Source: Gemmatimonadales bacterium (lineage in GTDB: Bacteria > Gemmatimonadota > Gemmatimonadetes > Gemmatimonadales > GWC2-71-9). From it: 64,000 bases of DNA. The position numbers were made by a program, and so were the translations under genes. Every line of letters begins with the position of its first letter. The first letter of the stretch is position 1. The stretch spans positions 3,012 through 67,011 of the forward strand of contig JBDTMI010000008.1 of NCBI GenBank assembly GCA_039934355.1, given 5' to 3'. Shown one piece after another: positions 3,676 through 32,960 of the stretch. The notes below the pieces were generated by a model that was not told the origin of the DNA, searched no databases, and worked only from the letters and a program-made list of their open reading frames with translations.

Positions 3676-3737
3676 CTTATTCCCTCCCTCCCCGGCCCGT
3701 GGTACCTTCCCGAAGCGAAACCCTCTACCGCCTGTCC

Positions 3738-5888: not shown

Positions 5889-5889
5889 G

Positions 5890-7392
5890 ATGCGAGCCTC
5901 CGCCGAGCACCGTGTGGGTGACGCCGGCCTCGGCAACGCCGAGGGCGCGCCGGTGGGCGTGGTGCACCTCGCCGCGGAGTATGGCTGGCTGGCGCGCACC
6001 GGTGGGCTCGCGGAGGCGGTCGCCGGACTCGCTGCCAGTCAGGCGGCCGCGGGGATCCCCTCGGCAGTGATCATCCCGCTGCATCGCTCGGTACGCAGCG
6101 CGGCGCCGGGGCTCGAGCGGGTGGGCGGGCCGTTCCAGGTGCAGGTCGGCCCCCGCACCGAGGAGGCGCGGCTGTTCCGGATCCCGTCGGGACCGGGCGA
6201 AACGAAGGTCTACTGCATCGAGCATCCCTACTTCGATCGCGCCGGTCTCTATGGCGAATCGGGGATGGATTACCCCGACAACCTGCAGCGCTGGGCCTTC
6301 TTCTGCCGCGCCGCGCTGGAGGTGCTGGCCAAGGTTACCCGCTCTCCGTGCATCCTGCATTGTCACGACTGGCACACCGCGCTGGCCCCGGTCTACCTCC
6401 GGCTGTATCACCCAGAGCAGCCCTTCGCCCGAGGCATCCGCACCGTCCTCACCGTGCACAACGCCGGCTTCCAGGGACACTTCAGCGCCGACGGCATGCC
6501 CGAAGTCGGATTGCCGTGGGAGCTGTATACCTGGCAGGGGCTGGAATGGCACGACAAGATGAACCTGCTGAAGGGCGGGCTGAAGTTCGCCGATTCGGTC
6601 ACGACCGTGAGCCCGACGCACGCACACGAGCTGCGAACTCCGGTCGGCGGGTTCGGACTGCACGATGTGTTTGTCGCCCTCGGTGACCGGTTCACCGGCA
6701 TCGTGAACGGTATCGACATGGAGGAGTGGAATCCGGCCAACGACGACATGATCACGGCGAAGTATTCGGTGGAGGACCTCGCCGGCAAGGCGCGGTGCAA
6801 GGCGACATTGCAGCGGAGCTTCGGCCTGCCCCAGCGCCGGAGGATCCCGCTCTTCGCCATGACCGCCCGAATGACGCACCAGAAGGGGCTCGAACTGATC
6901 ACCGGCGACTACACCCTCTTCATGCTCGAGGCGCAGTTCATCTTCCTCGGGACCGGCGAGCCGAAGTACGAGGCCATGCTCAAGATGTACGAGGCCCGCT
7001 GGCCCGACCGGATCAGCGTGCATCTCGGTTTCTCGCAGCGCCTGGAGCACCGGCTGATGGCCGGGGCCGACATCTATCTGATGCCCTCGCTGTATGAACC
7101 CTGCGGACTGGCCCAGCTCCGGGCCGAGCGCTACGGCGCCATCCCGCTCGCACGGCGGGTGGGCGGCCTCGCGGACACGATCGAGGACGGGGCGACGGGG
7201 TTCCTGTTCGACGAGTACAGTTCCGAGGATCTGCTGCGCGTCGCGCGCCATGTCATGGATCGCTACCACCACGGGCGAGCCTGGGAGACCATGATGCACA
7301 ACGCCATGCAGAAGGATTTTTCCTGGTCCCGCTCGGGCGAGAAGTACCTCGCAATCTACCGCCGTATCCTCGCCGCGCCGGCTGTGGCCTGA
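5890..7392 (+). CDS. glgA: Glycogen synthase (GT5)
   Basis: The protein shows VVHLAAEYGWLARTGGLAEAV (a KTGGL-type motif with R), CHDWHTAL and PSLYEPCGLAQL. The ATG at 5890 immediately follows the glgP stop. Confidence 0.9.
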   Translation: MRASAEHRVGDAGLGNAEGAPVGVVHLAAEYGWLARTGGLAEAVAGLAASQAAAGIPSAVIIPLHRSVRSAAPGLERVGGPFQVQVGPRTEEARLFRIPSGPGETKVYCIEHPYFDRAGLYGESGMDYPDNLQRWAFFCRAALEVLAKVTRSPCILHCHDWHTALAPVYLRLYHPEQPFARGIRTVLTVHNAGFQGHFSADGMPEVGLPWELYTWQGLEWHDKMNLLKGGLKFADSVTTVSPTHAHELRTPVGGFGLHDVFVALGDRFTGIVNGIDMEEWNPANDDMITAKYSVEDLAGKARCKATLQRSFGLPQRRRIPLFAMTARMTHQKGLELITGDYTLFMLEAQFIFLGTGEPKYEAMLKMYEARWPDRISVHLGFSQRLEHRLMAGADIYLMPSLYEPCGLAQLRAERYGAIPLARRVGGLADTIEDGATGFLFDEYSSEDLLRVARHVMDRYHHGRAWETMMHNAMQKDFSWSRSGEKYLAIYRRILAAPAVA

Positions 7393-7405
7393 GGGGGAGT
7401 TGGTC

Positions 7406-9118
7406 ATGGATTTCATTCTCGCCCTGCACAGCCACCTGCCCTGGGTCCTGAACCACGGACGCTGGCCCCATGGCAGCGACTGGCTCACCGAGGCGGCGAT
7501 CGACACCTATCTCCCGCTGCTCCTCACCCTGGAGCAGCTGGAGCGCGACGGGGTGCCCGCCCCGGTGACACTCGGCATCACGCCAGTGCTGGCCAATCAG
7601 CTGTGCAGCCCCGACTTCAACGACGAACTCGAGGCGTACTTCACCCAGCGCCTCGAAGCCTGCGACACCGCTCCCGCCTCGCTGCGCACCACCGGCGATG
7701 CGCACCTCACGCCGCTGGTCGATCACTGGCGGACCCACCTGCTGGCCCTGCGGGCCCGATTCCGCGAGGCGGATGGCGATCTCACCCGCCCGTTCCGCCG
7801 GCTGGAAGAGGCGGGCCGGCTGGAACTCATCTCCTGCGGCGCCACCCACGGCTTCCTGCCGCTGCTCGCGCGCGACGAGAGCATTCAGCTGCAGCTCCGT
7901 CTAGGGCGGAGCGAGCATCGTCGCATTTTCGGCAAGGACCCCGTCGGCCTCTGGCTGCCCGAGTGCGCCTACCGCCCCGCCGGACCGTGGGCCCCGCTCC
8001 CCGAGGCCCCGGCGAGCCCGATGCGGCGCGGGATCGAGGATCACGTCGCGGAGGCGGGCTTTCGATATTTCTTCGTCGACAGCCACCTCGCCGAAGCCGG
8101 GGCGGCCTTCAAGCTCTACGGCGCTGATTGGGGGGAATGGCGCGCCGGGGGTGCCGGGGACACCCGCCATCCTGAGCCCACACCTCCCCGGACCATCGAG
8201 TCGCCGACGACCAACTCCCCGTATCAGGCGTATCGGGTCGCGAGCGGGGATGGATCGTCCCCCGTCGCGGCGTACATCCGTGATCCCCTGGCCTCGCGCC
8301 AGGTATGGAGTAAGCAGGAGGGGTATCCCGGCGACGAGTGGTATCTCGAGTTCCACAAGATCCGCTGGCCCGGTGGTCTCAAGTACTGGCGGGTGAGTGC
8401 GCCCGGCTCGGACCTCGGTGCCAAGCTCCCCTATGCTCCCCAGCAGGCCCGGGAGCGGGCGGCCGATCATGCCCGGCACTTCGCCGGCCTGCTGCATCGG
8501 ATCGCGGCGTCGCCCAACCGTCGACCCGCCGAGGATGTGGTCGCCGTCCCGTTCGATACCGAGCTCTTCGGCCATTGGTGGCATGAGGGGGTCGACTTCC
8601 TTGGCGAGGTCTTCCGCGCGCTGCAGCACCAGTCGACGATCGCGCCCAGTACCGGCGGCGCCCACCTGCGGCTGGCGCCGCCGACGCGGGGCGTTCACCT
8701 CGCGAGCGGAACGTGGGGCGCCAATGGCGACGCGAGCATGTGGCTGAACGCGGAGACGGCGTGGACCTGGCCGCGGCTGTGGAAGATCGAGGAATCGTTC
8801 TGGCGGGTCGCGCCGGCCGCGCTGGCCTCGACAGCCCACCACCTGGTGCTGGCACAGGCCGCACGCGAGATGCTGCTCGCCATGTCGTCCGACTGGCAGT
8901 TCATCATCACGACCGGCGCGGTCACCGACTATGCGGTGAAGCGTTTCACCGAGCATTGCACCGACGCCGAATTCCTCATCTCCGCGCTCCAGTCAGGCGC
9001 GACCAATCTCGCGGCGGCCCAGTCGCAGGCGGCGGAGATGTGGCGGCGGGATCATCTCTTCCCCAACGTGCTGGAAACGGTGGCGGAAGTGGTGGGAGGG
9101 GTGGCCGTTAGCCGTTAG
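7406..9118 (+). CDS. GH57-family 1,4-alpha-glucan branching enzyme-like protein
   Basis: MDFILALHSHLPWV is GH57 region 1 of the branching-enzyme type. The length and C-terminal helical domain match Thermus/Thermococcus-type GH57 branching enzymes. GAGGGGGAG lies upstream of the ATG. Confidence 0.8.
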   Translation: MDFILALHSHLPWVLNHGRWPHGSDWLTEAAIDTYLPLLLTLEQLERDGVPAPVTLGITPVLANQLCSPDFNDELEAYFTQRLEACDTAPASLRTTGDAHLTPLVDHWRTHLLALRARFREADGDLTRPFRRLEEAGRLELISCGATHGFLPLLARDESIQLQLRLGRSEHRRIFGKDPVGLWLPECAYRPAGPWAPLPEAPASPMRRGIEDHVAEAGFRYFFVDSHLAEAGAAFKLYGADWGEWRAGGAGDTRHPEPTPPRTIESPTTNSPYQAYRVASGDGSSPVAAYIRDPLASRQVWSKQEGYPGDEWYLEFHKIRWPGGLKYWRVSAPGSDLGAKLPYAPQQARERAADHARHFAGLLHRIAASPNRRPAEDVVAVPFDTELFGHWWHEGVDFLGEVFRALQHQSTIAPSTGGAHLRLAPPTRGVHLASGTWGANGDASMWLNAETAWTWPRLWKIEESFWRVAPAALASTAHHLVLAQAAREMLLAMSSDWQFIITTGAVTDYAVKRFTEHCTDAEFLISALQSGATNLAAAQSQAAEMWRRDHLFPNVLETVAEVVGGVAVSR

Positions 9119-9142
9119 CCGTTAGCCGTTGGCCGTTGGCCG
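9104..9142. repeat. Heptanucleotide tandem repeat (GCCGTTR, 5.5 units)
   Basis: The array reads gccgtta x3, gccgttg x2, gccg. It overlaps the last codons and the TAG stop (9116-9118) of the GH57 gene. Confidence 0.9.
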
Positions 9143-9316
9143 AGAAATAGTGCTGTCATCCTGAGGCCCGAAGGGCCGAAGGATCTCTTGCGATCGGAAC
9201 AGGAGCCGGGAATGTGCTCCGAGGCGAGGACTTCCTTCGCTGCACCCAGGACAAATGTTCGCGGCGGCAATTCCCCTCACTCCGCACTCCCTACTCCCAA
9301 CCGTCCCCTCAACTCC

Positions 9317-11326
9317 ATGCCCTCCCGCTCCATCGTCATCCACGGCCACTTCTACCAGCCGCCGCGGGAAGATCCGTGGCTCAACCTCGTCGAGGCGGAG
9401 CCGTCGGCGGCGCCCTTTCACGATTGGAACGATCGGATCGAGCAGGAGTGTTACCGGGCAGTGGCGGCGGCGCGGGTGCCGGGAATGGGAGGACGGATCG
9501 CCCGGATCGAGAACGCCTACGAGTGGATCAGCTTCAACTTCGGGCCGACCCTGCTGGAATGGATGGAGCATGCGGCGCCGGATACCTACGCGGCCGTGCT
9601 CACGGCCGACCGCCTCAGCACGGCGCGACTGGGGCATGGCAACGCGATCGCGATGCCGTACCATCACGCCATCCTGCCGCTCTCCAGCCGCCGAGAAAAG
9701 ATGACCGAGGTCCGCTGGGGCATCGCCGATTTCCGGCGACGTTTCGGACGCGAGCCGGAGGGAATGTGGCTGCCGGAGACGGCAGTCGACGAGGAGACGC
9801 TCGACGTCCTGGCGGAGGCGGGCATCCGCTTCACCATCCTCGCGCCCCATCAGGTTGATCCCCTCCCCCCTGGCGGCCGACCGGGTGTCGTCACCACGAC
9901 GAGCGGTCGCACCATCGCGGTGTGCGTCTATGATGGCTCGCTGGCGCACGATGTCGCCTTCGGCCCACTGGTGCGGGACGCTGAGGCTTGGGCGGCACGG
10001 TTGCTGACGCCAGCGGTCGATCCCATGTCACCCGCCGTGCTGGTGTCGCTCGCCACCGACGGCGAGACGTGGGGACATCACCACGCGTTCGGCGAGATGG
10101 CGCTGATCCGCACCCTGATTCAATTGCGCGAGCGTCCGGGCATCCGGGTGGAGAACTTCGCGGCCTTTCTGGCTCGCGAGTCCGTGAGCCATCCGGTGCA
10201 GCTCATCGCGCCGAGCGCGTGGAGCTGCAGCCATGGTGTGGAGCGGTGGCGGAGCGATTGCGGCTGCAAGATGAGTCACGATCCGCCCACCAGCCAGGCG
10301 TGGCGCGCGCCGCTGCGTGACGCACTGAGCTGGTTCACGACCGAGTGCCACGCACTCTATGACCGGGAAGGGGCCACGGTCCTGCGGGATCCCGCGGCGG
10401 CGCTCGCCGGGTACGGCGCGGTGATCGGTGCCGACATGGAGACCGTGCAGGCCTACATCGCGGGCGCCACCCGAGCGGACATCGATGCCGAGGGCAGGAT
10501 CCGGGCGGCCGAGTTGCTCGAACTGGAGCGCGGGGCGCTCCGGTCGCTGACGTCGTGCGCCTGGTTCTTCGACGATCTGGCGGGAATCGAGACGCTGCAG
10601 GTGCTGCGCTACGCTGCCTGGGCGATCGCGCTGGCCGGGCCGGAGGCCGCGCGCCTCGAAGCGGGACTGGCCAGCCGACTGGCCCCGGCCCGGAGCAATC
10701 TCCGGACGCTCGGCACCGGACGGGATCTGTATCTCGAGATCGCCAGGCCACTCGCGCCGGCGCCGCTGAGGATCGCGGCCGGACTCGCGGCGGCACGGCG
10801 CATCGCGCCGGAGGCAGCGACGACACCGGCCTGGATGATCGATGGGCCCGACGATCGTCTGCGGCTGGTGAATCGACGCACCGGGCGGGAGCAGCTGCTG
10901 TCGCTGGTGCTCACCGAGGCGGCACTGGACCTCACCGTTGTCATCACCTCGCCGCTCACCGCCGAGCCCCTGACCCTGACGCTCGCCGACCTCCCCGAGC
11001 GCCAGCGCGAGGAAATCGGCGTGGTGTTGCGGAGCCGCTGCCTCGCAATGCTGCTGAACACCCAGGAGCGAGCAGCGGTCGCCCGGGGTGACGCGTTGCG
11101 GCCAGTGGTCCGTCAGGCGCTGGTACGGTGGGTGCGGGCGCTTGGCCGCGAGCGGGATGCGCCCGCCGAGTCCGCGGTGACCCTGTTGCTCCACCTGCTG
11201 GATCAGCTCGGCCAGACGGTACCATTCGAGGCGCAGACCCTGTTCTACGAACGCTGGCAGGCAGGCGGCACTGGCGACGCTGGAATAATGGAGCTGGCGA
11301 AGCGGATGGGGTTCGTCACGCCCTGA
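9317..11326 (+). CDS. GH57-family protein with a long C-terminal domain (DUF3536-type), specificity unknown
   Basis: MPSRSIVIHGHFYQPPRE is GH57 region 1, with WLPETAV and TDGETWGHH further on. The start is taken at the ATG at 9317. Confidence 0.8.
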   Translation: MPSRSIVIHGHFYQPPREDPWLNLVEAEPSAAPFHDWNDRIEQECYRAVAAARVPGMGGRIARIENAYEWISFNFGPTLLEWMEHAAPDTYAAVLTADRLSTARLGHGNAIAMPYHHAILPLSSRREKMTEVRWGIADFRRRFGREPEGMWLPETAVDEETLDVLAEAGIRFTILAPHQVDPLPPGGRPGVVTTTSGRTIAVCVYDGSLAHDVAFGPLVRDAEAWAARLLTPAVDPMSPAVLVSLATDGETWGHHHAFGEMALIRTLIQLRERPGIRVENFAAFLARESVSHPVQLIAPSAWSCSHGVERWRSDCGCKMSHDPPTSQAWRAPLRDALSWFTTECHALYDREGATVLRDPAAALAGYGAVIGADMETVQAYIAGATRADIDAEGRIRAAELLELERGALRSLTSCAWFFDDLAGIETLQVLRYAAWAIALAGPEAARLEAGLASRLAPARSNLRTLGTGRDLYLEIARPLAPAPLRIAAGLAAARRIAPEAATTPAWMIDGPDDRLRLVNRRTGREQLLSLVLTEAALDLTVVITSPLTAEPLTLTLADLPERQREEIGVVLRSRCLAMLLNTQERAAVARGDALRPVVRQALVRWVRALGRERDAPAESAVTLLLHLLDQLGQTVPFEAQTLFYERWQAGGTGDAGIMELAKRMGFVTP

Positions 11327-11333
11327 GACAGAA

Positions 11334-11365
11334 CCCCCCCGTTCCGTCGACCGGAACGAGGGGGG
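11334..11365. terminator. GC-rich hairpin between convergent genes
   Basis: The hairpin is cccccccgttccg tcga cggaacgagggggg. No T tract follows it. Confidence 0.45.
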
Positions 11366-11394
11366 TGATGCGGGTGCTCTGGGTCGGCGTCGGG

Positions 11395-12156
11395 TCAGCT
11401 ATGGCGGTACGTCCGCGCGGCGGCAATGAAGGCACGGAACAGATGCCGGGTGTGCGGATCGGTCATCTCGAACATCTCGGGATGCCACTGCACTCCGACC
11501 ATGAAGTGATCGGCGTCCCGCTCGACGGCCTCCACCAGTCCGTCCGGGGCGACCGCGGCGGGGACCAGCTCCGAGGCGAGTTGCTTGATGCCCTGATGGT
11601 GCATGCTGTTGACCAGGATGTTCGGCTTCTCCATCACGGCCAGCAGGCGGCTCCCCTTGGCGAGGGCGACCTCGTGAGCCAGGTGATCCCGGTCGAAGCC
11701 GGCGGTGGGGAAGTAGTCATGCTTGATGGAGTCGGGGACCTGCGCGGCAATGTCCTGATACAACGTGCCGCCGAACGCGACGTTCAAGACCTGGATGCCA
11801 CGGCAGAGCCCGAGCACCGGCTTGCGGTCTTCGATGGCCCAGCGGGTGAGCTGCAGCTCCACCCGGTCCCGGGCCGGGTCAAGCGCGCCCAGCTTGGGGT
11901 GGCGCTCCTCGCCGAAGGTGGCGGGGTCCATGTCCACGCCCCCGGGGATGAGGATGCCATCCAGCCGGTCGTAGATCTCGCGCAACGTATCTTCGTCGTC
12001 GTCGAGCAACGGAATCATCCACGGCACCCCACCCACGATCGTGGCCGCGAGGAAATACCGCTGATTCATCACCCAGGATTCCGGGAGCGCGGCCGGAATT
12101 CCGTCGATGGCGTGCAGCGTCTGGGTTGTGACCCCGATTACGGGACGTGGCAGCAT
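11395..12156 (-). CDS. Class I glutamine amidotransferase-like / peptidase C26 gamma-glutamyl hydrolase (PuuD-like)
   Basis: GLCRGIQVLNVAFGG carries the nucleophile Cys, with MHHQGI and VQWHPE (His/Glu) also present. The start is taken at MLPRPVIGV. Confidence 0.85.
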   Translation of the reverse strand: MLPRPVIGVTTQTLHAIDGIPAALPESWVMNQRYFLAATIVGGVPWMIPLLDDDEDTLREIYDRLDGILIPGGVDMDPATFGEERHPKLGALDPARDRVELQLTRWAIEDRKPVLGLCRGIQVLNVAFGGTLYQDIAAQVPDSIKHDYFPTAGFDRDHLAHEVALAKGSRLLAVMEKPNILVNSMHHQGIKQLASELVPAAVAPDGLVEAVERDADHFMVGVQWHPEMFEMTDPHTRHLFRAFIAAARTYRHS

Positions 12157-12259
12157 GTTGCTCGAATATCGGCCGGAACCGCCCGGCCCAGGATGAATGA
12201 TTGGTGAAAGGCTCTTACTCCCTACAGGCACAAACTACGCCACGCCCCCGCCGGTTCCT

Positions 12260-13366
12260 TTAGAGTACCCCTTCGGCGGTCTCCCGGACCAGCTGGTCCA
12301 CGACCTGGCGGAGGTCTCCGGTCCTCTTGAAGGTGGCCAGCTGCCGGTCAGCGCTGGTGCCCTCCTCCAGAATCTTGTAGGCGTACTCGATCTCCTTGCG
12401 GGTGCCGAGTTCGTCGATCACGTCGCCGAGAAACCAGTCGAGCATCTCGCGGATCAGTACCCGTGAAGGCTGCTCGGTCCCTTTGCCAAAATCGATGAGC
12501 TTGCCATCGAGCCCGTACCGACTGGCCCGCCATTTGTTCTCCTCGATGAACGCCACCGAATACTGCCGGAAGGAGAGGTTGTCCCGTCTGAGCTTCCACA
12601 GCTTGGCGACGATGGCCTGGAAGATCGCGGCGATACAGACCGCTTCGTCGACCCGGGTGCAGACATCGCAGATGCGGAATTCCAGCGTGGGATAGCTCCA
12701 GCTGGGCCGGAGGTCCCACCAGATCTTCGACGCGTTCGGAATGCTGTTGGTGGCGACCAGCGTGTTGACGACATCCTCGAACTCGCCCCACGAGCCGAGG
12801 CTGCGCGGGACGCCGGTCCGGGGAAAGCTCCGAAACACGATACTTCGGTAGGACTTGAGGCCAGTCTGTCGACCCATCCAGAAGGGGGAGCTGGTCGAGA
12901 GCGTCAGCACATGCGGCAGGAAGTACCGGGCCACATTCATCGCATCGATCAGAAACTCCCGATCCTCGATGCCGATATGCACATGAGTCCCGAAAATCAG
13001 CAGCGCCTGCGCCAGGTCCTGCAGGTCCTCCTTCACCCCCATGTAGCGCTCGAGCGGGGTGATCTCCTGATCCATCCAGGAGGAGAAGGGATGACTCCCC
13101 GCGGCCGCGACTCGCAGCCCCTGTTTGGCGGCCAGATCCATGACCAGCCGCCGCAGCCGCACCAGCTCGGAACGCACTTCACTCGGATGGTGGCAGACCC
13201 GAGTGCCGATTTCCACCATCGACTGGTGCAGCTCCGGCTTGATTTCGCCGAGCATCATCGAGTCCTCCTTGAGGATCTCGGTGATATAGGAGCGGAGCTC
13301 CCGGGTCTCGGGGTCGATGATCTGATACTCTTCTTCGACGCCGATAGTGAGGCTGGGGGCTTTCAT
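12260..13366 (-). CDS. Carboxylate-amine ligase, GCS2 / YbdK family
   Basis: [13 protein letters not shown] at the N-terminus, the HVHIG motif and a 368-aa length are typical of glutamate-cysteine ligase family 2. GAGGAG lies 5 nt upstream. Confidence 0.9.
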
Positions 13367-13397
13367 TGCTTCTCCTCGAGCTGGGATCCGATAGCGC

Positions 13398-13461
13398 GTT
13401 CAGCGTTGAGCATTCAGCGGTACGCGGCTGAACGCCGAACGCTGAATGCTGAACGCTGACC
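13398..13461. repeat. Inverted heptamer arrays (3 GTTCAGC-type units facing 5 GCTGAAC-type units)
   Basis: The sequence reads gttcagc gttgagc attcagc ggtacgc g gctgaac gccgaac gctgaat gctgaac gctgacc. The arms are mutually complementary. Confidence 0.85.
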
Positions 13462-13463
13462 AC

Positions 13464-14819
13464 TCACTCGCGTTCCTCGACCACAAAACAAGGCACCGTA
13501 CTCCCCCCGCCGGCCGTCACGTTCAGCAGGGCGGCGGTGGACAGTCGCGTGAGGCAGCCATCCACCGCCGAGCCATTGAGGACGAAGGGTGCGGTATCGA
13601 ACATCCGGTCGATGAAGTGGACCGCGCCCTCGGACCAGGTGGGATAGGCTTCGCTCGGAACCGCGACGCGGGCCTGCACGATATGCGGTGTGGTGAGGGC
13701 GTGCGCGAGCGCCGCGGCCCACCCGGCATCATCCACCGTCCAGCCGAGGATCACCCCGGCGCCGCCGTAATCATCGTTGGGCTTGAGGACCAGCCGCTCG
13801 CGGTTGGCGGCGATGAACGGAACCAGGTCCACCCGCTCGCCGGCGCATTCCGTCTTCCGCTCCTCCACCACCCGGGTCCACGGAAGGAACTCGGCGATCG
13901 CCTCCCGCTCGCGCGGCGAGAAGAGGGTCGTATTCCGTTCGTCGGAGAGCACGGCGAGACTGGCCTTCTTGTGCAGCAGCTTGCAGCGAAAGGGATTTAC
14001 CATGCAGACCGCCCGATCCCGCACGGCCCGCACCATGGGATGCTCCAGCCCTTCCCGCTCCACCAGTTCGTTGATCAGCACCCGCTTGTAGATCAGGTCG
14101 ATCTCGCCACCGGGACCACGAAGCCGGCCACCGTGGTATTCGAGCTCGCGCGGATCGACGATGACAGTGGGACAGCCGATTGATTCGAAGTACGCCTTGA
14201 AAATCTCGAACTCCACGTACGTCGGCACGTCGTTCCAGTCGACAATGGCGATGCGGGGCCGCTCCCAGCGGCCGGAGAACTCTCGCCAGGCGTCCAGAAT
14301 GATCGTTGCCACGCCCGGCCGGGCCGGCAGCGGCATCACCCGGTAGCGCTGGCGAAAGGCGCGCATGACCGGCAGCACCGCGAACGCCTCGGTCAGCAGA
14401 TCGTTGAAGCCGGCCCCAGCGGGCGTCTCGGCGTTGTACTCCGTGAGCGCGAGCGTGTCGGTGGCGTCGACCGTGAAACAGTCGAGCCGTCCATGCGGGC
14501 TCGGGCTGGCATACCCGGGATCGGCCAGCATGAGCTGTTCTTCCCAGTCGGTGAGACGGAACTGTGCCCGCAGCGCCGCATCGATCATGGCGGCGTGGTG
14601 GGCCCGCCCGAACGCCGACATCAGGCGCCCGATGCGTCCCTCCATGCGGGAGAGCCACGAGGCGGTGACAAAGCGGGGCCGGAGCACGGTGCACAGCGGC
14701 CGATCACCGAAGACCAGCGTCCGCCGCCGCAGCTCCTCCTCGAGCATGACGTGCGAGGCTTCGGCCAGCTCCGACTGTCCGAGCAGCTCGTGGTAGAGTG
14801 CGATGGGTCCGGCGCTCAC
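13464..14819 (-). CDS. ATP-grasp-fold amidoligase, glutathionylspermidine-synthase-like or circularly permuted ATP-grasp type
   Basis: LALTEYNAETPAGAGF resembles the E-x-N-x-(D/E)-T-P motif of GSP-synthase / CP-ATP-grasp families. The start is set at the GTG at 14819, which overlaps the upstream stop (GTGA). The longer ORF to 15176 overlaps the next gene. Confidence 0.65.
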   Translation of the reverse strand: MSAGPIALYHELLGQSELAEASHVMLEEELRRRTLVFGDRPLCTVLRPRFVTASWLSRMEGRIGRLMSAFGRAHHAAMIDAALRAQFRLTDWEEQLMLADPGYASPSPHGRLDCFTVDATDTLALTEYNAETPAGAGFNDLLTEAFAVLPVMRAFRQRYRVMPLPARPGVATIILDAWREFSGRWERPRIAIVDWNDVPTYVEFEIFKAYFESIGCPTVIVDPRELEYHGGRLRGPGGEIDLIYKRVLINELVEREGLEHPMVRAVRDRAVCMVNPFRCKLLHKKASLAVLSDERNTTLFSPREREAIAEFLPWTRVVEERKTECAGERVDLVPFIAANRERLVLKPNDDYGGAGVILGWTVDDAGWAAALAHALTTPHIVQARVAVPSEAYPTWSEGAVHFIDRMFDTAPFVLNGSAVDGCLTRLSTAALLNVTAGGGSTVPCFVVEERE

Positions 14820-15748
14820 CGCCGGCTCTGGGCAAAGAGCTGGGCCCACCCCGCCTGTTCCACCTGGCGCCGGCCACCGTTGGCCAGCCGGATCACCAGA
14901 TCCGCCATGTGGGTCACCACCCACTCGAAGTAGGCCGGTGTGAGCGAGTAGATGTCCATGTCCGGTGCCGGGTTCATGAAATCGATCGCGTAGGGAATCC
15001 CGTCGCGTATGGCGAACTCGATCGTGTTCATGTCGTAGCCCAGCGCCCGGACGATCGTGTGGCAATCGCGGGTGACCTGTTCCCGCAGCGCGGCCGGCAG
15101 GTAGTCGTGATCGACGACATAAGATCGATGTTTCGGATCCCACTGCATGATCAGGACATCGTCCTGGCCCAGGCACATGCAGCGGACGAACTGGTCGAAA
15201 TGAATGAACTCCTGCATGATCATGTTGAGCAGGCCGGAGTCGTCATAGTTCTTCAGCAGGTCTTCCCGGGTGTGACAGACATAGACATCGCGCCAGCCGC
15301 CGCCGTGGGCGTCCTTGAGAATGCAGGGGAGACCGATTTCCCGGATCAGGCCATCCCAGTCCACCAGTTGCAGATTGCGCAGGCTCTCGTCCCGGACGAT
15401 CCCCTTGATGTAGTCCCGGTTGGGGAGGGCGACGGTCTTCGGGCTCGCGACGCCGAGCTTCGTGATGAGCGCCGCCCCGAAGAACTTGTCGTCCGCCGTC
15501 CACATGAACGGGTTGTTCACCACCGCGACGCCCTGCACCACGCACTGTTTGAGGTAGGAGCGGTAGAACGGCACCTCATGGGAGATCCGGTCCACGATGA
15601 CGTCCCAGGGGCAGGGCTGATCCATCGCCACCGCGCCGATCGAGACCATCTCCGCCACGACGCCGGCATCCCGGCGCGCGACTTCATCAATGAACGCCGG
15701 GGGAAAGCTCCACTCCCGCCCGACGATGAGGCCGACGCGCTTGAGCAT
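14816..15748 (-). CDS. ATP-grasp domain ligase (RimK / glutathione-synthetase-like)
   Basis: GLPCILKDAHGGGWRDVYVC, the MQEFI motif and IEFAIRDGIPYAIDFMNPAPD (Mg/ATP-binding region) are present. The start is taken at MLKRVGLIV. Confidence 0.8.
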   Translation of the reverse strand: MLKRVGLIVGREWSFPPAFIDEVARRDAGVVAEMVSIGAVAMDQPCPWDVIVDRISHEVPFYRSYLKQCVVQGVAVVNNPFMWTADDKFFGAALITKLGVASPKTVALPNRDYIKGIVRDESLRNLQLVDWDGLIREIGLPCILKDAHGGGWRDVYVCHTREDLLKNYDDSGLLNMIMQEFIHFDQFVRCMCLGQDDVLIMQWDPKHRSYVVDHDYLPAALREQVTRDCHTIVRALGYDMNTIEFAIRDGIPYAIDFMNPAPDMDIYSLTPAYFEWVVTHMADLVIRLANGGRRQVEQAGWAQLFAQSRR

Positions 15749-15773
15749 GGGTGCAGGTCCAGTGTGTGAATTC

Positions 15774-15878
15774 GTTGAGCGTTCAGCATTCAGCGGTAAG
15801 CATTCAGCAACCACAGTCGTCGACCGCCGCGCCAGGTTCAGTCCGAAACCGCTGAAGGCTGAATGCTGACCGCTGGCC
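15774..15878. repeat. Inverted heptamer arrays separated by about 40 nt
   Basis: The left arm is gttgagc gttcagc attcagc ggtaagc attcagc (15774-15808). The right arm is gctgaag gctgaat gctgacc gctggcc (15851-15878). Confidence 0.85.
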
Positions 15879-15883
15879 CCCGC

Positions 15884-16603
15884 TCATCCAGGTCCGCCCA
15901 GGTACATCCGCGCCATCTTCTCCCAGTACGGCCAGTCGTGCGCCGAACCGTCCCAGGGACGCAGCGCGTTGCCGATGCTCTTGCTCCAGAGCAGCTCGGA
16001 GAAGTCGACATTGTTCTGGTACATCGGATCGTCCCGGCCGATCACGAAGATCAGGTCCTGCCGCCGGAACGCGGCGAGGCGGCCAGGATGGTGCTCGTGC
16101 ACCATGAAGTCCATCGGATTCACCGGGTACACATTTTCATCCGAGAAGCCGTCGGTCATCCGCTTGAGGTCGTACATCCCGCTCATGCCGAGCACCCGAT
16201 TGACCTGTTCGGGAAAGAGCAGCCCGAACGTGGCGGCATGCGTGGCCCCCAGACTGGCGCCCGTCGCAATGACATACGGATTCGGGTTCTGCCACGCGGA
16301 GTACGGCAGGACTTCCTCGCGGATGTAGCGGAAATACTGCCGGTGCACCCACCCGCGGTGACTGGGATGGGTCCGGGTGTTCCCCCAGTTTTCTTCGTGC
16401 GGCTGGTCCAGGCAATAGAGCTGGATCCAGCCATTGTCGAGGTGATCCTGCAGCACCTCGTGCATCCGCCGGTCAGGCCATTCGGAATGGGTGCCCATGC
16501 TGGTGGGAAAGACCAGCACCCGGGCGCCGGCGTGCCCGATCACCTGCAAGGTCATCGACCGGTCGAGCGCCGGGCTGCGCCAGGAGTGGGTTTCGTGATG
16601 CAT
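15884..16603 (-). CDS. Esterase-family alpha/beta hydrolase (esterase D / putative esterase type)
   Basis: 239 aa with the nucleophile elbow GASLGATHA and a C-terminal HDWPYW region. Confidence 0.75.
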   Translation of the reverse strand: MHHETHSWRSPALDRSMTLQVIGHAGARVLVFPTSMGTHSEWPDRRMHEVLQDHLDNGWIQLYCLDQPHEENWGNTRTHPSHRGWVHRQYFRYIREEVLPYSAWQNPNPYVIATGASLGATHAATFGLLFPEQVNRVLGMSGMYDLKRMTDGFSDENVYPVNPMDFMVHEHHPGRLAAFRRQDLIFVIGRDDPMYQNNVDFSELLWSKSIGNALRPWDGSAHDWPYWEKMARMYLGGPG

Positions 16604-16640
16604 GGGGTGGCGGGGAGCAGGTGGCAGGTAGTCACACGCC

Positions 16641-16668
16641 GACGGCTGACGGCTGACGACTCACGCCT
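16641..16668. repeat. Heptanucleotide repeat (GACGGCT family, the reverse-complement phase of GCCGTCA)
   Basis: The array reads gacggct gacggct gacgact cacgcct. Confidence 0.8.
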
Positions 16669-16842
16669 GCCAGCCCCTTGTTGGGGGGACAATCTACCCC
16701 GATCCGCGAATTCCTCCATGCCCCCCCCGAGAGGCGGGTCACGGCTCGGCGGCACCCGCCCGGATACAAGCAACCCCGGTGGGTCGCGGCCAACCGGGGT
16801 AGGGCTCGACTCTTGACGTCTGCGTGCTGAGGACGCCGCCGG

Positions 16843-17511
16843 TTACTCCATCGGCTTCAGGCTCAACTGCATGTGAAATGTGCCACCTGCACCGGTCAGT
16901 TCAAATACGCCTCGGGCCGGCTTGCCCAGGGACACCCCTTCCACCCCCTCCGGCAATCCCTGCAACACGGCACACTCCTCGGCGCAATCCATCCGGCGCC
17001 ACCAGGTGGTGCCGCCTTCGTTGGTGATCAACAGCGAAACCGAACCCAGCCAGTGTGCCCCGCCCTGGCGGAGTCCATTGAGTGCGGACCCGAGAATCTG
17101 ACTCGCCGGATCCAGGAACGGTCGTCCGAGCTGACTCAGGCCGGAGGTGGTGGCCACACCGCCGTCGAGTTCGGTGGTGAGTTCCGCCGACTCGGATTCC
17201 AGCACGGAGATCACCACCCGGGCGCTGTCGCCGGGCGCGAGCAGCAGCACCTCCATCGGAGTCGGTGACACAATCGCGTTCTCGGCGAGTCGATAGTGTC
17301 CGCTGGCGGGGAGATGCGAGCTCGCGTGAGAATGGGAACCCAGGACCGAGACGAGGAAGTAGGGAGCATCGGTGCTGTCCCCCGCGCCGCGGGAGGTGGT
17401 GAGTGTTGCGGCGTGCAGGGTGGTCAGCTCGATGGCAACCCGGCTCGGCGCAGGCCAGGTCGAAAGCAGGCTGGTCAGCAGGAGCCCGCTGCAAGCAGGA
17501 ATCGGGAGCAT
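16843..17511 (-). CDS. Hypothetical secreted protein (222 aa)
   Basis: MLPIPACSGLLLTSLLSTWPAPS looks like a signal peptide. I recognised no family. The upstream 100 codons of the ORF-track entry are Pro/Arg-rich and were rejected. Confidence 0.45.
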   Translation of the reverse strand: MLPIPACSGLLLTSLLSTWPAPSRVAIELTTLHAATLTTSRGAGDSTDAPYFLVSVLGSHSHASSHLPASGHYRLAENAIVSPTPMEVLLLAPGDSARVVISVLESESAELTTELDGGVATTSGLSQLGRPFLDPASQILGSALNGLRQGGAHWLGSVSLLITNEGGTTWWRRMDCAEECAVLQGLPEGVEGVSLGKPARGVFELTGAGGTFHMQLSLKPME

Positions 17512-17973
17512 GATCTGGACATCCGGAGAGAAGGGAGGGAGGGATACCCAGGGTCTCGGCGCGCAAGGATGCACCTGGCAACATAGGACTGTGCGGCTGG
17601 AACTGGCAGGAGACGGCTGGAGCTGGCGGCCGTTGCACGGCGGAGGGTGGAAGTGGCCGCGGTCGCGTACGCGGCTCCCTGGCGGGCAGGCCGTGCCCCT
17701 CGGACGGCGACGGAACTGCGGAGGAGGGAGCGGCGGCCGTCGCGACGCCGGTTCCCGGGTGGGGCAGAGAGCGGGCAGCGGGTGCCCCTCGTCGTGGAAG
17801 CCTCCTGACACGCACCATGGGTGGTGCGGTCGACCTTCGAGGCTGCCGCCTCATGATGCAGCACCGGCGGCAAACCCCTGCTCGAAAGAACGCTTGCGCT
17901 CCCCCGGCAGTCTCACGCGGCCCATCACCAGCTCCCCGCTACCAGTCGCCAGCCCGCGCCTTACCTTTCTCCC

Positions 17974-19926
17974 ATGCCCTCCCCCACCCGGTTCGTCTTT
18001 GCGGTCCACCTGCACCAGCCGGTGGGCAACTTCGACTCGGTCTTCGAGCAGCATCTGGCGGACGTCTACCGCCCGCTGCTTGAAAAGGTGGACGAGCGGG
18101 ACTTCCTCCCGATCGTGCTGCACCTCTCCGGCCCGCTGCTCGAATGGCTGGAGCAGAAGGCCGGTGACTATCTCGATCTGCTGGGCCGGCTGGTATCCAG
18201 CGGCAAAGTGGAGCTGCTGCTCTCCGGCATGTACGAGCCCGTCCTGGCGGCGCTGCCCCGGCGGGACCGGGTCGAGCAGATCCAGTGGATGCGGGAGGCG
18301 ATCGCCACTCGTTTCGGGGTGCAGGCGCACGGGCTGTGGCTCACGGAGCGCGTCTGGGAACCGGAGCTCGCGGCGGACCTGGTCGATGCCGGGGTGCGCT
18401 ATGCGCTGGTGGATGACCGGCATTTCCTCGTCACCGGCTTTCAGCCCGGCGATCTCCACGTCCCCTACACCACCGAGAGCGATGGCCGTCGACTCACCCT
18501 GTTCTCGATCGATGAACGGCTTCGCTACCTGATTCCCTTCCGGCCCCCGGCGGAGACGGCCGACTACCTGCGCGACCTCTCAGCGCACGGGAAGCGGCTC
18601 GCGGTCTTTGCCGATGACGGCGAGAAATTCGGCGGCTGGCCCGGCACGAAGGACTGGGTGTACACCCAGGGATGGCTCGACCAGTTCCTCACGACGATGG
18701 CCGCGCTGATCGACGGCGGCGAGGTGCTGTTAACCACGCTCAGCGAATCACTGGAGGCGGTGCCCTCCGGCGGCCTGGCTTACCTGCCCACGGCCTCCTA
18801 CCGGGAAATGGAAAGCTGGTCGCTGCCGCCGGAACCGGCCCGCCGCCTGGCAGCCCTGGAGCGCGAACTCGGCGCCGCGCGCATGGCTGGTCCGGACGGT
18901 GTGCTGATCCGGGGCGCGCACTGGCGCAATTTCATGGTGAAGTATCCGGAGGCCAACCGGATGCACAAGAAGATGGTGGCGCTCTCCACGCTGTGCCGCG
19001 CCGCGGGTGACCCGGCCGACGCCCGTCGCGCCATCGGCCGGGCGCAGTGCAACGACGCCTACTGGCACGGCGTCTTCGGCGGGCTCTACACCCCGCATCT
19101 GCGCGACGCGATCTGGGCCGAGCTGGCAGGGGCGGAGGCGATTCTGCGGGAAGGTGAGCCGCCGGCGTGGGAGTGGCTCGACATCGACGCCGACGGTCAT
19201 GACGAGCTGTGGATCCACGACGCCACCTTTTCAGCCATCATCAGCCCGCAGCGCGGGGCCGTCATCGAGGAGTTCACCGTCTTCGCACACGCCATCAACT
19301 ACGCCAACGTCCTCACTCGGCGGCGGGAGGGATATCACGAGATCGCTCCTGCGACGGCCCGCGTCAGCCACCACGATGAGCGTGGCGTGCCAAGCGTCCA
19401 CGACCTCGAGGAGCAGATGCTCCGCAATGAGCTGCCCCCGATCGATCCCGAGACACGCGCGCTGATTCGCGAGCGGGCACTGCCCTCCGACGTGGATGCG
19501 GCGATGTATGCCCGCGGCGACTACGATCCGGCCTGGACCACCGCAAACACGACACTGGAATGCGCGGTGACGCCGGGGGCGGGTGACGGCGCCGGCGTCA
19601 CCGTGACCTGCCGCGCCACCGACGGCGGGATCGTGATCTTCGAGAAATCCTACCGCTTCCACACCGGTGGCCGGTTGATTGCCGAGTATCGCTGGCGGCC
19701 CGGCGCCCTCGGCGCCGGTGCGGTCTTCGCGCCGGAAGTCAGTTACGCCGGCCCGGCTGAACTCACCTGCTCGCCCGCCGCGCCGATCTGGCGTTACCAG
19801 ATCGAGACGGTGTCCAAGTCGGAGAAGGAACTGGAGCGCACGGTCCAGGGTCAGGCAGTCACGCCGCGCTGGCCGGCGAGCGTCGGCGAGGCGCGGATTG
19901 AATTCGTGACGAAGGGGCGGGGGTAA
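17974..19926 (+). CDS. GH57-family 4-alpha-glucanotransferase / alpha-amylase-like protein
   Basis: FVFAVHLHQPVGNF is GH57 region 1, with WLTERVWEP and GEKFGGWPGT also present. The 650-aa length fits the architecture with the two C-terminal beta domains. Confidence 0.85.
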   Translation: MPSPTRFVFAVHLHQPVGNFDSVFEQHLADVYRPLLEKVDERDFLPIVLHLSGPLLEWLEQKAGDYLDLLGRLVSSGKVELLLSGMYEPVLAALPRRDRVEQIQWMREAIATRFGVQAHGLWLTERVWEPELAADLVDAGVRYALVDDRHFLVTGFQPGDLHVPYTTESDGRRLTLFSIDERLRYLIPFRPPAETADYLRDLSAHGKRLAVFADDGEKFGGWPGTKDWVYTQGWLDQFLTTMAALIDGGEVLLTTLSESLEAVPSGGLAYLPTASYREMESWSLPPEPARRLAALERELGAARMAGPDGVLIRGAHWRNFMVKYPEANRMHKKMVALSTLCRAAGDPADARRAIGRAQCNDAYWHGVFGGLYTPHLRDAIWAELAGAEAILREGEPPAWEWLDIDADGHDELWIHDATFSAIISPQRGAVIEEFTVFAHAINYANVLTRRREGYHEIAPATARVSHHDERGVPSVHDLEEQMLRNELPPIDPETRALIRERALPSDVDAAMYARGDYDPAWTTANTTLECAVTPGAGDGAGVTVTCRATDGGIVIFEKSYRFHTGGRLIAEYRWRPGALGAGAVFAPEVSYAGPAELTCSPAAPIWRYQIETVSKSEKELERTVQGQAVTPRWPASVGEARIEFVTKGRG

Positions 19927-19963: not shown

Positions 19964-20019
19964 GCCAATGGCGAACGGCCAATGGCCATTGGGTGACGGC
20001 TGATGGCTGATCGCCCTAC
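19964..20019. repeat. Heptanucleotide repeat in GC-phase (8 units)
   Basis: The array reads gccaatg gcgaacg gccaatg gccattg ggtgacg gctgatg gctgatc gccctac. It lies between convergent genes and reaches the stop codon at 20016-20018. Confidence 0.8.
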
Positions 20020-21545
20020 CCGTAGACCGTCTCCGCCTCCAGCACCTCAAGGGTGCGCTGATACAGCGCGTCGGCTTCCGCCACACTGTTGCCGATGGCG
20101 GTGACCCCGAGCTTGCCATACTGCGACAGGGCCCCAATCAGGTGAAAGAGCACTCCGCTTTCGGTCCGGTAGTTGAAGTTCAGCTGGTTCACCGTGACGA
20201 TATCGATCAGATCCTCCGGCAGCAGCCCACGGTAGCGCGGGGCGTGCAGATTGTCGGTGGCACGGTAGTACTTGGGCCGGCCGCTGTCGGACGAAAAGAG
20301 GCCAGTCGCCGGATCGAGCGCGCCGCCGGTGAGGAGGCGAAGCGCGAGGAAGGGATGCGTCGTACCGCCTAACCGGAGATTGATCTCGATCGCGTTCAAC
20401 GCCCAGGGCTGGCCGGGCCCCGAACGCACCGCCATGAAATCCACTCCCATCCGGCTCACCACCCCCTTCGCCGCCAGCACGTCGCCCACCGCCTGGGCGG
20501 TCTGCTGCACCGCGACCCGGTAGCAGTCGTCGGCGGGGAAGCGGCAACCGAGGAACACCTGTCCTTCGTCGCCGCCAAGGATCTGATCGTGGGTGGAGAT
20601 GGGAACCACTTCACCCCGCGGTCCGGTGCGGAGCTGGGCGCTGGGCGAGCAGATCTCCGCCCCCTCGATGAATTCCTCGACAATCCCGCCCATCCCGCTG
20701 AACTTTTCGAAGTACGACTCCTTCTGCTCGCTGGGGGCGATGAAATGCACTCCGTCCAGCGCCCGACCCATGGCGGCGCGGCCCACGCCTCTGGGGTAGC
20801 GGAAGATGGCGTTGCCCTCGCCGGAGAAACTTTCGTTGAGTTTGATGACCGCCTTGCGGATCTCCGGCCGCAACACCCGGAGCCCGGTCAGCGCCGCCAG
20901 CACGTCGTGCTCATCCCGCAGATCCTCGGACCCCGCAGGATGGAGCACACCCGCCTCCCGGAAAATCTTCCGCCCGCCAGACTTGGTCCCATGATGGGTC
21001 AGGGCGGGATCGGCCCCGTTGAGTGGAATCCCCAGCAGCACGGCGAGCCGGCGTTCCAGCGGTGTGGAGTTGAAGACGCTGAGATACGCCTGGCTGGGGT
21101 TGGGGATCGCATAGCGGATCCGCTGAATCAGCCGGGGCCGCTCCAGGATCTTCTCGGTGAGCGGCCGGGGTGAGGCGTCGTGCGCGCACAACATGGTGAG
21201 CCGGTGACGGGCGTGACTGGCCGGCACACCGAGCAGGTGCTGCAGCAGGTAGTCGATAATGTCGGGATGCACTGGCTGGGCGGTCACATAGACCATGTGC
21301 GCCCGCGGGTTGCGCAGCCGGATGAGGAGGAAGAGCAGGCGTTCCTCGTAATAGCTCGCACCCTCGAGCTTGCGCAGCTCGGCCTGGTCCAGCGTCAGCG
21401 ATGGCACCACGACCGTGGTGCACGGCAGATCGTTGTCGCGCAGCAGCAGATCCCAAACCTCAATCAGGCGCGGCTTGAGGCGCTCGAAGGCGTCCAGCTC
21501 ATCCTGCAGGGCGAGCTGACTCGGGAAGGGAGGCTGGGGGATCAC
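20016..21545 (-). CDS. PGM1-like pre-ATP-grasp / ATP-grasp peptide ligase family protein
   Basis: 509 aa. The N-terminal pre-ATP-grasp-like region contains VVVPSLTLDQAEL. The C-terminal ATP-grasp-like region contains GIVEEFIEG and MGVDFMAV..ALNAIEINLRLGGTTHP. The start codon is GTG. Family assignment is from memory of the architecture. Confidence 0.6.
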   Translation of the reverse strand: MIPQPPFPSQLALQDELDAFERLKPRLIEVWDLLLRDNDLPCTTVVVPSLTLDQAELRKLEGASYYEERLLFLLIRLRNPRAHMVYVTAQPVHPDIIDYLLQHLLGVPASHARHRLTMLCAHDASPRPLTEKILERPRLIQRIRYAIPNPSQAYLSVFNSTPLERRLAVLLGIPLNGADPALTHHGTKSGGRKIFREAGVLHPAGSEDLRDEHDVLAALTGLRVLRPEIRKAVIKLNESFSGEGNAIFRYPRGVGRAAMGRALDGVHFIAPSEQKESYFEKFSGMGGIVEEFIEGAEICSPSAQLRTGPRGEVVPISTHDQILGGDEGQVFLGCRFPADDCYRVAVQQTAQAVGDVLAAKGVVSRMGVDFMAVRSGPGQPWALNAIEINLRLGGTTHPFLALRLLTGGALDPATGLFSSDSGRPKYYRATDNLHAPRYRGLLPEDLIDIVTVNQLNFNYRTESGVLFHLIGALSQYGKLGVTAIGNSVAEADALYQRTLEVLEAETVYG

Positions 21546-23694: not shown

Positions 23695-23807
23695 AGGCCG
23701 GGGAGGAGGGAAAGAGGAAAAGGGAAAGTGGAGTGCTCCGCGGACAATCTACTGCGTGCTACCGAGAGCGTCAGGGGACGTTTCAGGCCGAACGCGAGGG
23801 GCGCGGA

Positions 23808-23842
23808 GCCGTCAGCCGTCAGCGTGCAGCGGATAGCCGCTC
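23808..23842. repeat. Heptanucleotide repeat (GCCGTCA family)
   Basis: The array reads gccgtca gccgtca gcgtgca gcggata gccgctc, in a divergent promoter region. Confidence 0.75.
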
Positions 23843-23903
23843 ACCTAGCCGCCCAACCCCCCCCCGCCCTTTCCCCATTCCCCCTTCCCCGTATTTTCCC
23901 TCC

Positions 23904-32932: not shown

Positions 32933-32960
32933 GCTGAACGCTGAATGCTGAACGCCGAAC
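32933..32960. repeat. Heptanucleotide repeat (GCTGAAY family, 4 units)
   Basis: The array reads gctgaac gctgaat gctgaac gccgaac. Confidence 0.85.

Follow-up and report, generated by a model that had tools for sequence, protein, structure and literature searches.

What is made by five neighbouring genes, three of which encode ligases that consume ATP and two of which encode hydrolases? The question is raised by a stretch of 64,000 nucleotides from a Gemmatimonadales bacterium (GenBank assembly GCA_039934355.1, contig JBDTMI010000008.1, positions 3,012 to 67,011 of the forward strand), called here the window. Five minus-strand genes, all co-directional, fill positions 11395-16603 of it. An initial annotation, made from the letters alone, had placed the genes there and proposed that they assemble and turn over a gamma-glutamyl peptide or amine conjugate. 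Direct reading of the window sequence confirmed that all five open reading frames (ORFs) are present. In the order of transcription the genes are named Est (an alpha/beta serine hydrolase), AG1 (a classical ATP-grasp ligase), CPAG (a circularly permuted ATP-grasp ligase), GCS2 (a carboxylate-amine ligase) and C26 (a gamma-glutamyl hydrolase-type protein). Our answer, to which we give a probability of about 0.55, is that the operon is a module that builds and turns over a small peptide, or a peptide-amine conjugate, inside the cell, most likely with a gamma-glutamyl linkage, and that works independently of nonribosomal peptide synthetases (NRPS).

The linkage of the genes was assessed across genomes. 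A pattern scan with one genome per species detected a CPAG relative in at least 594 genomes. The best 80 loci among these were used as the synteny sample, tblastn was run with the five window proteins, and adjacency was counted only in loci with enough flanking sequence. The order Est-AG1-CPAG-GCS2-C26 was found in 43 of the 47 fully assessable loci, 23 of which also carry a second esterase gene, Est2. Taken singly, AG1 was adjacent in 69 of 71 assessable loci, Est in 62 of 65, GCS2 in 61 of 64 and C26 in 51 of 56. Co-localisation in related genomes, on which the initial annotation had made its proposal depend, is very strong, and the five-gene arrangement is far beyond chance. The carriers belong to Gemmatimonadota, Acidobacteriota, Rhodothermales, Armatimonadota and several orders of Chloroflexota, and the genes that flank the cluster are unrelated.

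Variants of the arrangement occur in Chloroflexota and a few Gemmatimonadota loci. Two loci, L048 and L076, have the order C26-Est-AG1-CPAG without GCS2. L051 has Est-AG1-CPAG-GCS2 and L072 has AG1-CPAG-GCS2, both without C26; the contig of L072 ends inside AG1, so Est is not assessable there. L059 has AG1-CPAG-C26. The invariant core is Est-AG1-CPAG, and GCS2 and C26 are frequent partners, each of them separately dispensable. No consistent extra partner was found in the Chloroflexota loci, and L051 has genes for a flavin reductase, a HIT protein and an alpha/beta hydrolase.

Two further observations concern the surroundings of single loci. In an Anaerolineales locus (L050, 9322-13701) the genes run Est-Est2-AG1-CPAG, and a gene of the S9 prolyl-oligopeptidase family overlaps the end of CPAG and replaces GCS2 and C26; the potassium-uptake genes TrkH and TrkA come after it. 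Phage-type integrase genes lie beside the cluster in three unrelated loci, one of Acidobacteriota (L001, 13538-15054) and two of Chloroflexota (L048, 2930-3922, and L051, 12660-13598), a hint that the module sometimes travels on mobile islands.

As shown in Table 1, the five genes of the window form one operon, with a GTGA overlap, short spacers and one terminator-like hairpin. The GTG start codon of CPAG (14819-14817) overlaps the TGA stop codon of AG1 (14818-14816), as had been noted before, and the coupling of AG1 and CPAG is therefore real. The hairpin stands directly after the C26 stop codon and is the single one of its kind in the operon. The start of AG1 is almost certainly the ATG at 15748, because its orthologues have about 311 residues. 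C26 likely starts at the ATG at 12156, and its orthologue in L001 has 254 residues. The catalytic motifs of all five proteins are at least 98% conserved (31-80 orthologues).

Table 1. Genes and structural elements of the operon in the window (aa, amino acid residues; REP, repetitive extragenic palindrome).
Feature	Coordinates	Strand	Description
Est	15884..16603	-	239 aa; PF00756-like alpha/beta serine hydrolase; first operon gene in this genome
REP-like GCTGAAY inverted repeat	15772..15873		Est/AG1 spacer
AG1	14816..15748	-	310 aa; divergent classical ATP-grasp ligase, RimK/Ddl/LysX-like fold; ORF extends to 15814
CPAG	13464..14819	-	451 aa; circularly permuted ATP-grasp ligase; GTG start
Second REP-like GCTGAAY inverted repeat	13396..13463		CPAG/GCS2 spacer
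GCS2	12260..13366	-	368 aa; GCS2/YbdK-type carboxylate-amine ligase
C26	11395..12156	-	253 aa; C26 gamma-glutamyl hydrolase-type, class-I amidotransferase fold; ORF extends to 12231
Terminator-like hairpin closing the operon	11334..11364	-	13-bp stem with 10 G-C pairs, then T-rich tail

Two of the spacers are occupied by REP-like elements, in which tandem GCTGAAY heptamers are arranged as inverted repeats. The Est/AG1 spacer folds at -56.7 kcal/mol (z = -2.7) and the hairpin of the CPAG/GCS2 spacer at -48.5 kcal/mol (z = -4.2). The heptamer has 22 matches in the window against 0.16 expected, and further copies of the element lie at 3646-3668, 32933-32962 and 52184-52227. It was present in 0 of 86 related loci, including loci with about 90% protein identity; it is therefore a genome-specific dispersed insertion and not a conserved part of the operon. 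An Rfam scan of 11000-18200 gave sub-threshold chance matches on the REP hairpin only and neither a riboswitch nor a leader, a sigma-70 promoter scan found none, and PADLOC returned no defence match for the five operon proteins or two neighbours. The idea that the operon serves a ribosomally synthesised and post-translationally modified peptide (RiPP) or a carrier protein was rejected, since the spacers are short or filled by the genome-specific REP elements and leave no space for a conserved small ORF.

The initial annotation had assigned a domain to each protein and listed profile hidden Markov model searches as a check, and these were run. GCS2 and C26 passed clearly with PF04107 and PF07722, Est came just under the cut-off of PF00756, CPAG matched a circularly permuted ATP-grasp model weakly and had no match to PF03738, and AG1 gave no Pfam match at all.

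CPAG matched the Pfam model CP_ATPgrasp_2 (PF14403) at E = 1e-4, with 21.9 bits against a cut-off of 32, and the match was limited to the C-terminal 120 residues. A precomputed PF14403 match exists for about half of the listed CPAG orthologues, which are 61-76% identical. The Pfam models for glutathionylspermidine synthase (PF03738) and eukaryotic glutathione synthase gave no CPAG match at E<=0.01. The E-Y-N-A-E-T-P motif recorded in the initial annotation lies in an octapeptide, TEYNAETP, which is invariant in the family and retains the Mg-binding E-x-N motif; CPAG also keeps the VLKPND.YGG.G loop, with its Lys and Gly-rich stretch, and a C-terminal GGGS motif. An AlphaFold (AF2) model was built from the orthologue alignment (predicted local distance difference test, pLDDT, 87.6). 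It matched 8fbz, 2hgs, 3kal, 3n6x, 2io8 and 7uk8 over nearly its full length, with E to 9e-16 and template modelling (TM) scores to 0.69. The fold partners are eukaryotic-type glutathione and homoglutathione synthetase, GspS, YgiC/YjfC, Mfla_0391, the CP_ATPgrasp_1-type 3n6x and the fungal E-64 ligase Cp1B, which agrees with the fold of GspS and the circularly permuted ATP-grasp enzymes assigned earlier. The sequence profile of the CPAG family found 3n6x at 1.7e-7 and YgiC at 0.006, with NAETP of CPAG aligned to NADTP of YgiC. Identity to the solved members of the fold is 11-17%, and the similarity is a structural one. All characterised enzymes of this fold are ligases that couple an amino acid or a polyamine to the carboxylate group of a small acid or peptide (PMC12568646 and the structure matches).

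Neither AG1 nor its orthologues matched any Pfam model. The single family match of AG1 was to rimK_fam (TIGR00768), at 1e-8 and 34.8 bits, below the cut-off of 143.4 bits. The AlphaFold (AF2) model from the orthologue alignment (pLDDT 84) resembled Ddl, RimK and LysX/ArgX with TM scores of 0.65-0.75. A fold search with it gave 535 PDB matches at E<=0.001, and the top 50 listed were all ATP-grasp ligases. The invariant LKDAHGGGW loop, QEF, E245 and DFMN correspond to the Lys, the Gly-rich loop and the acidic/Asn Mg ligands of the three-domain ATP-grasp fold. As judged from the predicted model, the likeness of AG1 to RimK is at the fold level only. The family is large, with 282 clusters (50% identity) at E<=1e-30 and 1031 at E<=1e-10, and source databases name its members 'glutathione synthase/RimK-type'. 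Domain fusions of AG1 were considered as Rosetta-stone evidence and rejected, as the long relatives proved to be low-complexity tails or frameshifted AG1/GCS2 chimeras. Two such database proteins, P0337 and P0374, are frameshift chimeras that join the AG1 and GCS2 segments directly; AG1 and GCS2 are therefore immediate neighbours in some lineages, without CPAG between them.

Est scored 21.7 bits (E = 1.9e-4) against the Pfam Esterase model PF00756, which has a cut-off of 22. Its triad motifs are kept in 64 orthologues, namely the GASLG serine (GAS(117)xG), the GRDDP aspartate and the AHDW histidine. The profile of the Est family matched PF00756-type carboxyl and feruloyl esterases among solved structures (5vol at 8.5e-11, 7xrt, and FphF 6vh9 at 4e-6), and feruloyl and carboxyl esterases score 1e-10 to 1e-6 against it. 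The gene had been called esterase-D-like. The GASLG nucleophile and the profile matches to PF00756-type structures fit that call, with a score just short of the Pfam cut-off; the nearest relatives are feruloyl and carboxyl esterases, not S-formylglutathione hydrolase (SFGH). The latter function was rejected for Est, as SFGH (7yvt) reached only E = 0.2 and the feruloyl and carboxyl esterases are far closer. Est2 is a second, clear PF00756 esterase of about 230-290 residues (for example L001, 7580-8266). It stands directly upstream of Est in 30 of 59 assessable loci and is absent from the entire 64-kb window.

The two remaining proteins are assigned more firmly to their families. GCS2 matched PF04107 at 1.4e-51 (176 bits, cut-off 21), the NCBIfam model PRK13515 'carboxylate-amine ligase' with 517.7 bits (cut-off 371) and the YbdK structure 1r8g at 2.4e-45. 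None of the NCBIfam 'glutamate--cysteine ligase' models reached its cut-off; one of them gave 349 bits where 409 are required. GCS2 is the most conserved gene of the set, 69-97% identical across loci, and EEEYQ and other acidic motifs are conserved. C26 matched PF07722 at 1.9e-63 (214.6 bits, cut-off 20.5). In 31 orthologues the conservation of its CRG (Cys), HHQ and WHPE motifs is at least 98%, and the Cys-His-Glu triad is intact, as the initial annotation had it. Among structures, C26 matched Lin1909 (3fij) at 2.5e-42, PuuD (6vtv) at 1.8e-33 and the 7d4r/7d50/7d53 chains ('probable glutamine amidotransferase' in the PDB listing) at about 1e-30. The PuuD equivalog model NF008471 gave 129.2 bits against a cut-off of 266; C26 is a relative of PuuD and not an orthologue.

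A rearranged counterpart of the operon was found in Bacteroidota. Distant AG1 relatives (about 43% identity) are abundant in this phylum and occur in cultured members such as Mucilaginibacter galii, Phaeodactylibacter luteus and Flavihumibacter. The clusters contain orthologous Est2 (divergent, on the opposite strand), Est, AG1 and GCS2, 26-51% identical to the window proteins and in another order, and a class-I glutamine amidotransferase (GATase) which is not C26. They end with a protein of 401-408 residues without a Pfam match (L085, 11798-13024; L086, 11240-12445). The motifs VLKP..GxG, QE[KR]V and RLS can be aligned between this protein and CPAG in the same order, and hhalign against the CPAG profile gave E = 0.019, a weak value from a single sequence against a profile. 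From these motifs it is probably a divergent circularly permuted ATP-grasp protein. The retention of the gene set through the rearrangement argues strongly for a shared function. In L085 only, a DUF4262 gene lies between AG1 and GCS2 (9227-9691).

Many Bacteroidota AG1 orthologues (P0260, P0274 and P0279 among them) have long C-terminal low-complexity tails and an HHH_5/H3TH domain, which suggests tethering to nucleic acid or the ribosome. The tails are acidic, or AT-hook-like with PKRRGRPAK repeats, or Lys/Ala/Pro-rich and histone-H1-like. AG1 of the window is without such a tail. Distant CPAG homologues (25-29% identity) are located on plasmids of Selenomonas, Bacillus and Streptomyces, beside a glutamate-cysteine-ligase-family gene, alpha/beta hydrolases, an M20 deacylase and MATE exporters. 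These plasmid neighbourhoods share the theme of small-peptide synthesis.

How would such a module work? Our proposal starts from the enzyme classes, the intact active-site motifs, the organisation and boundaries of the operon and the linkage of its genes in several phyla. GCS2, like members of its family, would convert the gamma-carboxylate of glutamate into an acyl phosphate and couple it to an amino acid or an amine. CPAG would act on a small acid or peptide, whose free carboxylate it would activate and link to the amine group of a polyamine or an amino acid. AG1, which is nearly always encoded just upstream of CPAG, may add a further residue; alternatively it may form an ester bond, because relatives of the Ddl type can make esters. 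C26 would cleave a gamma-glutamyl amide, either for recycling of the product or for removal of a glutamate that had been used as a temporary handle. Est, together with Est2 in about half of the genomes, would hydrolyse an ester or amide bond, either in the finished product or in an intermediate. We favour biosynthesis over catabolism because three of the enzymes are ligases that consume ATP. A gamma-glutamyl peptide or amine conjugate, as proposed at the outset, is still the most reasonable reading of these enzyme classes, with substrates and a product that we infer.

Several points weigh against this proposal. GCS2 and/or C26 is missing from L048, L050, L051, L057, L059, L072 and L076; because each of the two genes is dispensable, the gamma-glutamyl steps are not obligatory and may be accessory to the Est-AG1-CPAG core. 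For AG1, CPAG and Est, function can be transferred only weakly from the nearest families, as each of the three proteins falls short of the curated cut-off. The operon encodes neither a transporter nor a regulator and has no gene that would supply a substrate, so that nothing there anchors a prediction. Some Bacteroidota AG1 proteins, with their tails of nucleic-acid-binding type, fit a macromolecular context better than a soluble metabolite. Our search of the literature found no paper which characterises any member or gives a product or substrate, in line with the earlier statement that no characterised pathway has this composition.

A more specific form of the proposal holds that the operon makes a low-molecular-weight thiol like glutathione, or a polyamine conjugate. 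GCS2 would then form gamma-Glu-Cys, AG1 would correspond to GshB and CPAG to glutathione or glutathionylspermidine synthetase, and C26 and the esterases would recycle the thiol or its thioesters. Proven gamma-Glu-Cys ligases do exist in the GCS2 family, and the second-best NCBIfam models of GCS2 are named glutamate-cysteine ligase; those models are below cut-off, however, and the generic PRK13515 is above. Glutathione synthetases and GspS are the best structural matches of CPAG, and AG1 relatives carry the label 'glutathione synthase/RimK-type', but the likeness is at the level of fold or superfamily only, with the glutathione synthetase and GSP_synth Pfam models unmatched. The gamma-glutamyl-GABA (gamma-aminobutyric acid) hydrolase PuuD is the closest named relative of C26, and 7d4r-type chains match too; Est, for its part, is close to feruloyl and carboxyl esterases and not to SFGH. 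Genes for the conversion of agmatine to putrescine lie 7 kb away, yet they are not kept beside the operon, for which flanks of 4 kb were compared. For several of the carrier phyla the proposed thiols are bacillithiol derivatives, which also counts against a glutathione-like product. We consider this specific form unlikely.

Modification of a protein or peptide is less probable again. AG1, which is RimK-like, and/or CPAG would attach amino acids to a target protein at one of its carboxylates, GCS2 would start a branch in the manner of the Pup ligase, and C26 and Est would act as erasers. The fold of AG1 does match RimK, LysX/ArgX (which act on protein C-termini) and graspetide cyclases. The tails of many Bacteroidota AG1 orthologues (AT-hook-like, Lys/Ala/Pro-rich or acidic, with HHH_5/H3TH) would also suit such a role, whereas AG1 in the window has no tail. 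The Pup ligase arose from the GCS2 fold (PMC2588565), but the characterised YbdK/GCS2, C26 and circularly permuted ATP-grasp relatives use small molecules. Neither a small conserved ORF nor a candidate target gene was found in the 86 related loci, and the spacers are short.

A catabolic or salvage role is a still poorer candidate. GCS2 would gamma-glutamylate an amine or polyamine, as in the Puu and Pau pathways, the conjugate would be processed and released by C26, and the ATP-grasp enzymes and the esterase would handle related conjugates. C26 is nearest to PuuD-type gamma-glutamyl-amine hydrolases, although it gave 129 bits against the cut-off of 266 for the PuuD equivalog. The gamma-glutamyl-polyamine synthetases and GCS2 share one carboxylate-amine ligase superfamily (PMC2588565). 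Against this role, the neighbourhoods show no conserved gene for an oxidase, dehydrogenase, aminotransferase or transporter, and three ligases that spend ATP are hard to justify.

That the five genes are functionally unrelated neighbours on one strand is very improbable: GCS2 and C26 are each sometimes missing and two REP-like hairpins break the operon in this genome, but the synteny contradicts it, the set being kept across phyla with differing flanks and through the Bacteroidota rearrangement, and AG1 and CPAG are translationally coupled.

The genes around the operon in the window were also inspected. It is embedded in an opposite-strand island of glycogen metabolism (3699-11326 and 17974-19926), with genes for DUF3417/phosphorylase, GT5 glycogen synthase, GH57 branching enzyme, GH57/DUF3536 and GH57 4-alpha-glucanotransferase. 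A functional link to these genes was rejected: the flanks are common to only about 20 Gemmatimonadales loci and absent in other phyla, so that this is lineage synteny. A third ATP-grasp gene, of the PGM1 type (pheganomycin peptide ligase; ATP-grasp_IQCH and PGM1_C), lies at 20016-21545 on the minus strand, 3.4 kb upstream, and is kept at that place in only about five close relatives. Upstream of Est there is a co-directional ORF (16843-17811, minus strand) without a Pfam match, with a probable product of about 230 residues and an N-terminal hydrophobic, signal-like segment. It is probably outside the operon, because it is kept upstream in only four close relatives. The agmatine-to-putrescine genes to which the initial annotation had drawn attention are both present, as an adjacent pair about 7 kb off, which encodes an agmatine deiminase (24870-25958, plus strand) and a CN_hydrolase of the N-carbamoylputrescine-amidase type (23733-24791, plus strand). 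They are not part of the conserved neighbourhood. A link to them was rejected; the comparison across loci covered flanks of 4 kb, beyond which they lie, and the genes that flank the operon in the window are common only to close Gemmatimonadales relatives.

A bolder proposal can also be made, which we offer tentatively and think rather doubtful as a whole. The operon and its Bacteroidota counterpart would make an undescribed gamma-glutamyl peptide cofactor (a thiol, redox buffer or osmolyte), standard in Gemmatimonadota and in many Acidobacteriota, Chloroflexota and Bacteroidota, with AG1 as a new, unmodelled ATP-grasp family. A compact set of five or six enzymes is kept together in at least five phyla that dominate soils and sediments. 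Once the product was found, several large families that now go under the names 'hypothetical protein', 'carboxylate-amine ligase' or 'glutathionylspermidine synthase family' would gain a function, and in these little-studied phyla it might prove to be a new, widespread metabolite, such as a thiol, a polyamine conjugate or an osmolyte. The operon is directly testable, being small, with obvious candidate substrates and with cultured carriers such as Gemmatimonas, Roseisolibacter and Mucilaginibacter.

Of the known systems, the neighbourhood associated with PF14403 is the most similar. We take the prototype of this family to be the circularly permuted ATP-grasp protein RoseRS_2616 of Roseiflexus, whose partners are presumably a GCS2-like ligase, an alpha/beta-hydrolase peptidase, an amidohydrolase and an M20 peptidase, with a predicted role in small-peptide synthesis. 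For this type of neighbourhood the Pfam entry is said to cite Iyer, Abhiman, Burroughs and Aravind (Mol Biosyst 5:1636, 2009), and the same group wrote the 2008 study of carboxylate-amine ligases discussed below. On this description, both systems have a ligase of the circularly permuted ATP-grasp family, a GCS2 ligase, one or more alpha/beta hydrolases and an amidohydrolase; Chloroflexota members occur here too, and an M20 deacylase stands beside a distant CPAG homologue. They differ in that the amidohydrolase of our operon is of class I (C26) and the other presumably of the GAT-II type, that there is no M20 peptidase here, and that AG1 and the second esterase are core partners. The operon of the window is then one of hundreds in a type of neighbourhood that, by this description, was already predicted and is biochemically uncharacterised. 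Its novelty is lower than the initial annotation implied, both by this description and by its presence in hundreds of species. Carboxylate-amine ligases beside amidotransferase-like thiol peptidases were read in 2008 as a sign of glutathione-like peptide synthesis (PMC2588565).

Like the glutathione and glutathionylspermidine pathway, the operon combines a GCS2-family ligase, a ligase with the fold of eukaryotic glutathione synthetase and GspS (TM about 0.68) and an ATP-grasp enzyme of the RimK/GshB superfamily, and the Mg-binding motif E-x-N of that pathway recurs in TEYNAETP of CPAG. It differs from the pathway in the lack of an amidase domain, the extra esterase or esterases, the presence of C26 and the identity of 11-17%. 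YgiC/YjfC of E. coli (peptide-spermidine ligases) and fungal Cp1B of the E-64 pathway are stand-alone ligases of the CPAG fold that couple small acids or peptides to amines (PMC12568646); they are very distant (profile E = 0.006) and have another genomic context. The likeness to the Puu/Pau pathway lies in the match of C26 to PuuD (1.8e-33). The ligase here is GCS2 and not the GS-like PuuA, oxidase and dehydrogenase genes are absent, and C26 stays under the cut-off of the PuuD equivalog. With RimK, LysX and Ddl, AG1 shares the fold and the ATP and Mg motifs; unlike them it has no Pfam match and no S6 or LysW-like partner gene, and rimK_fam gives 34.8 bits against 143. The present analysis adds the quantified synteny, the Est-AG1-CPAG core, the second esterase, the Pfam-less AG1 family and the rearranged Bacteroidota counterpart in cultured strains.

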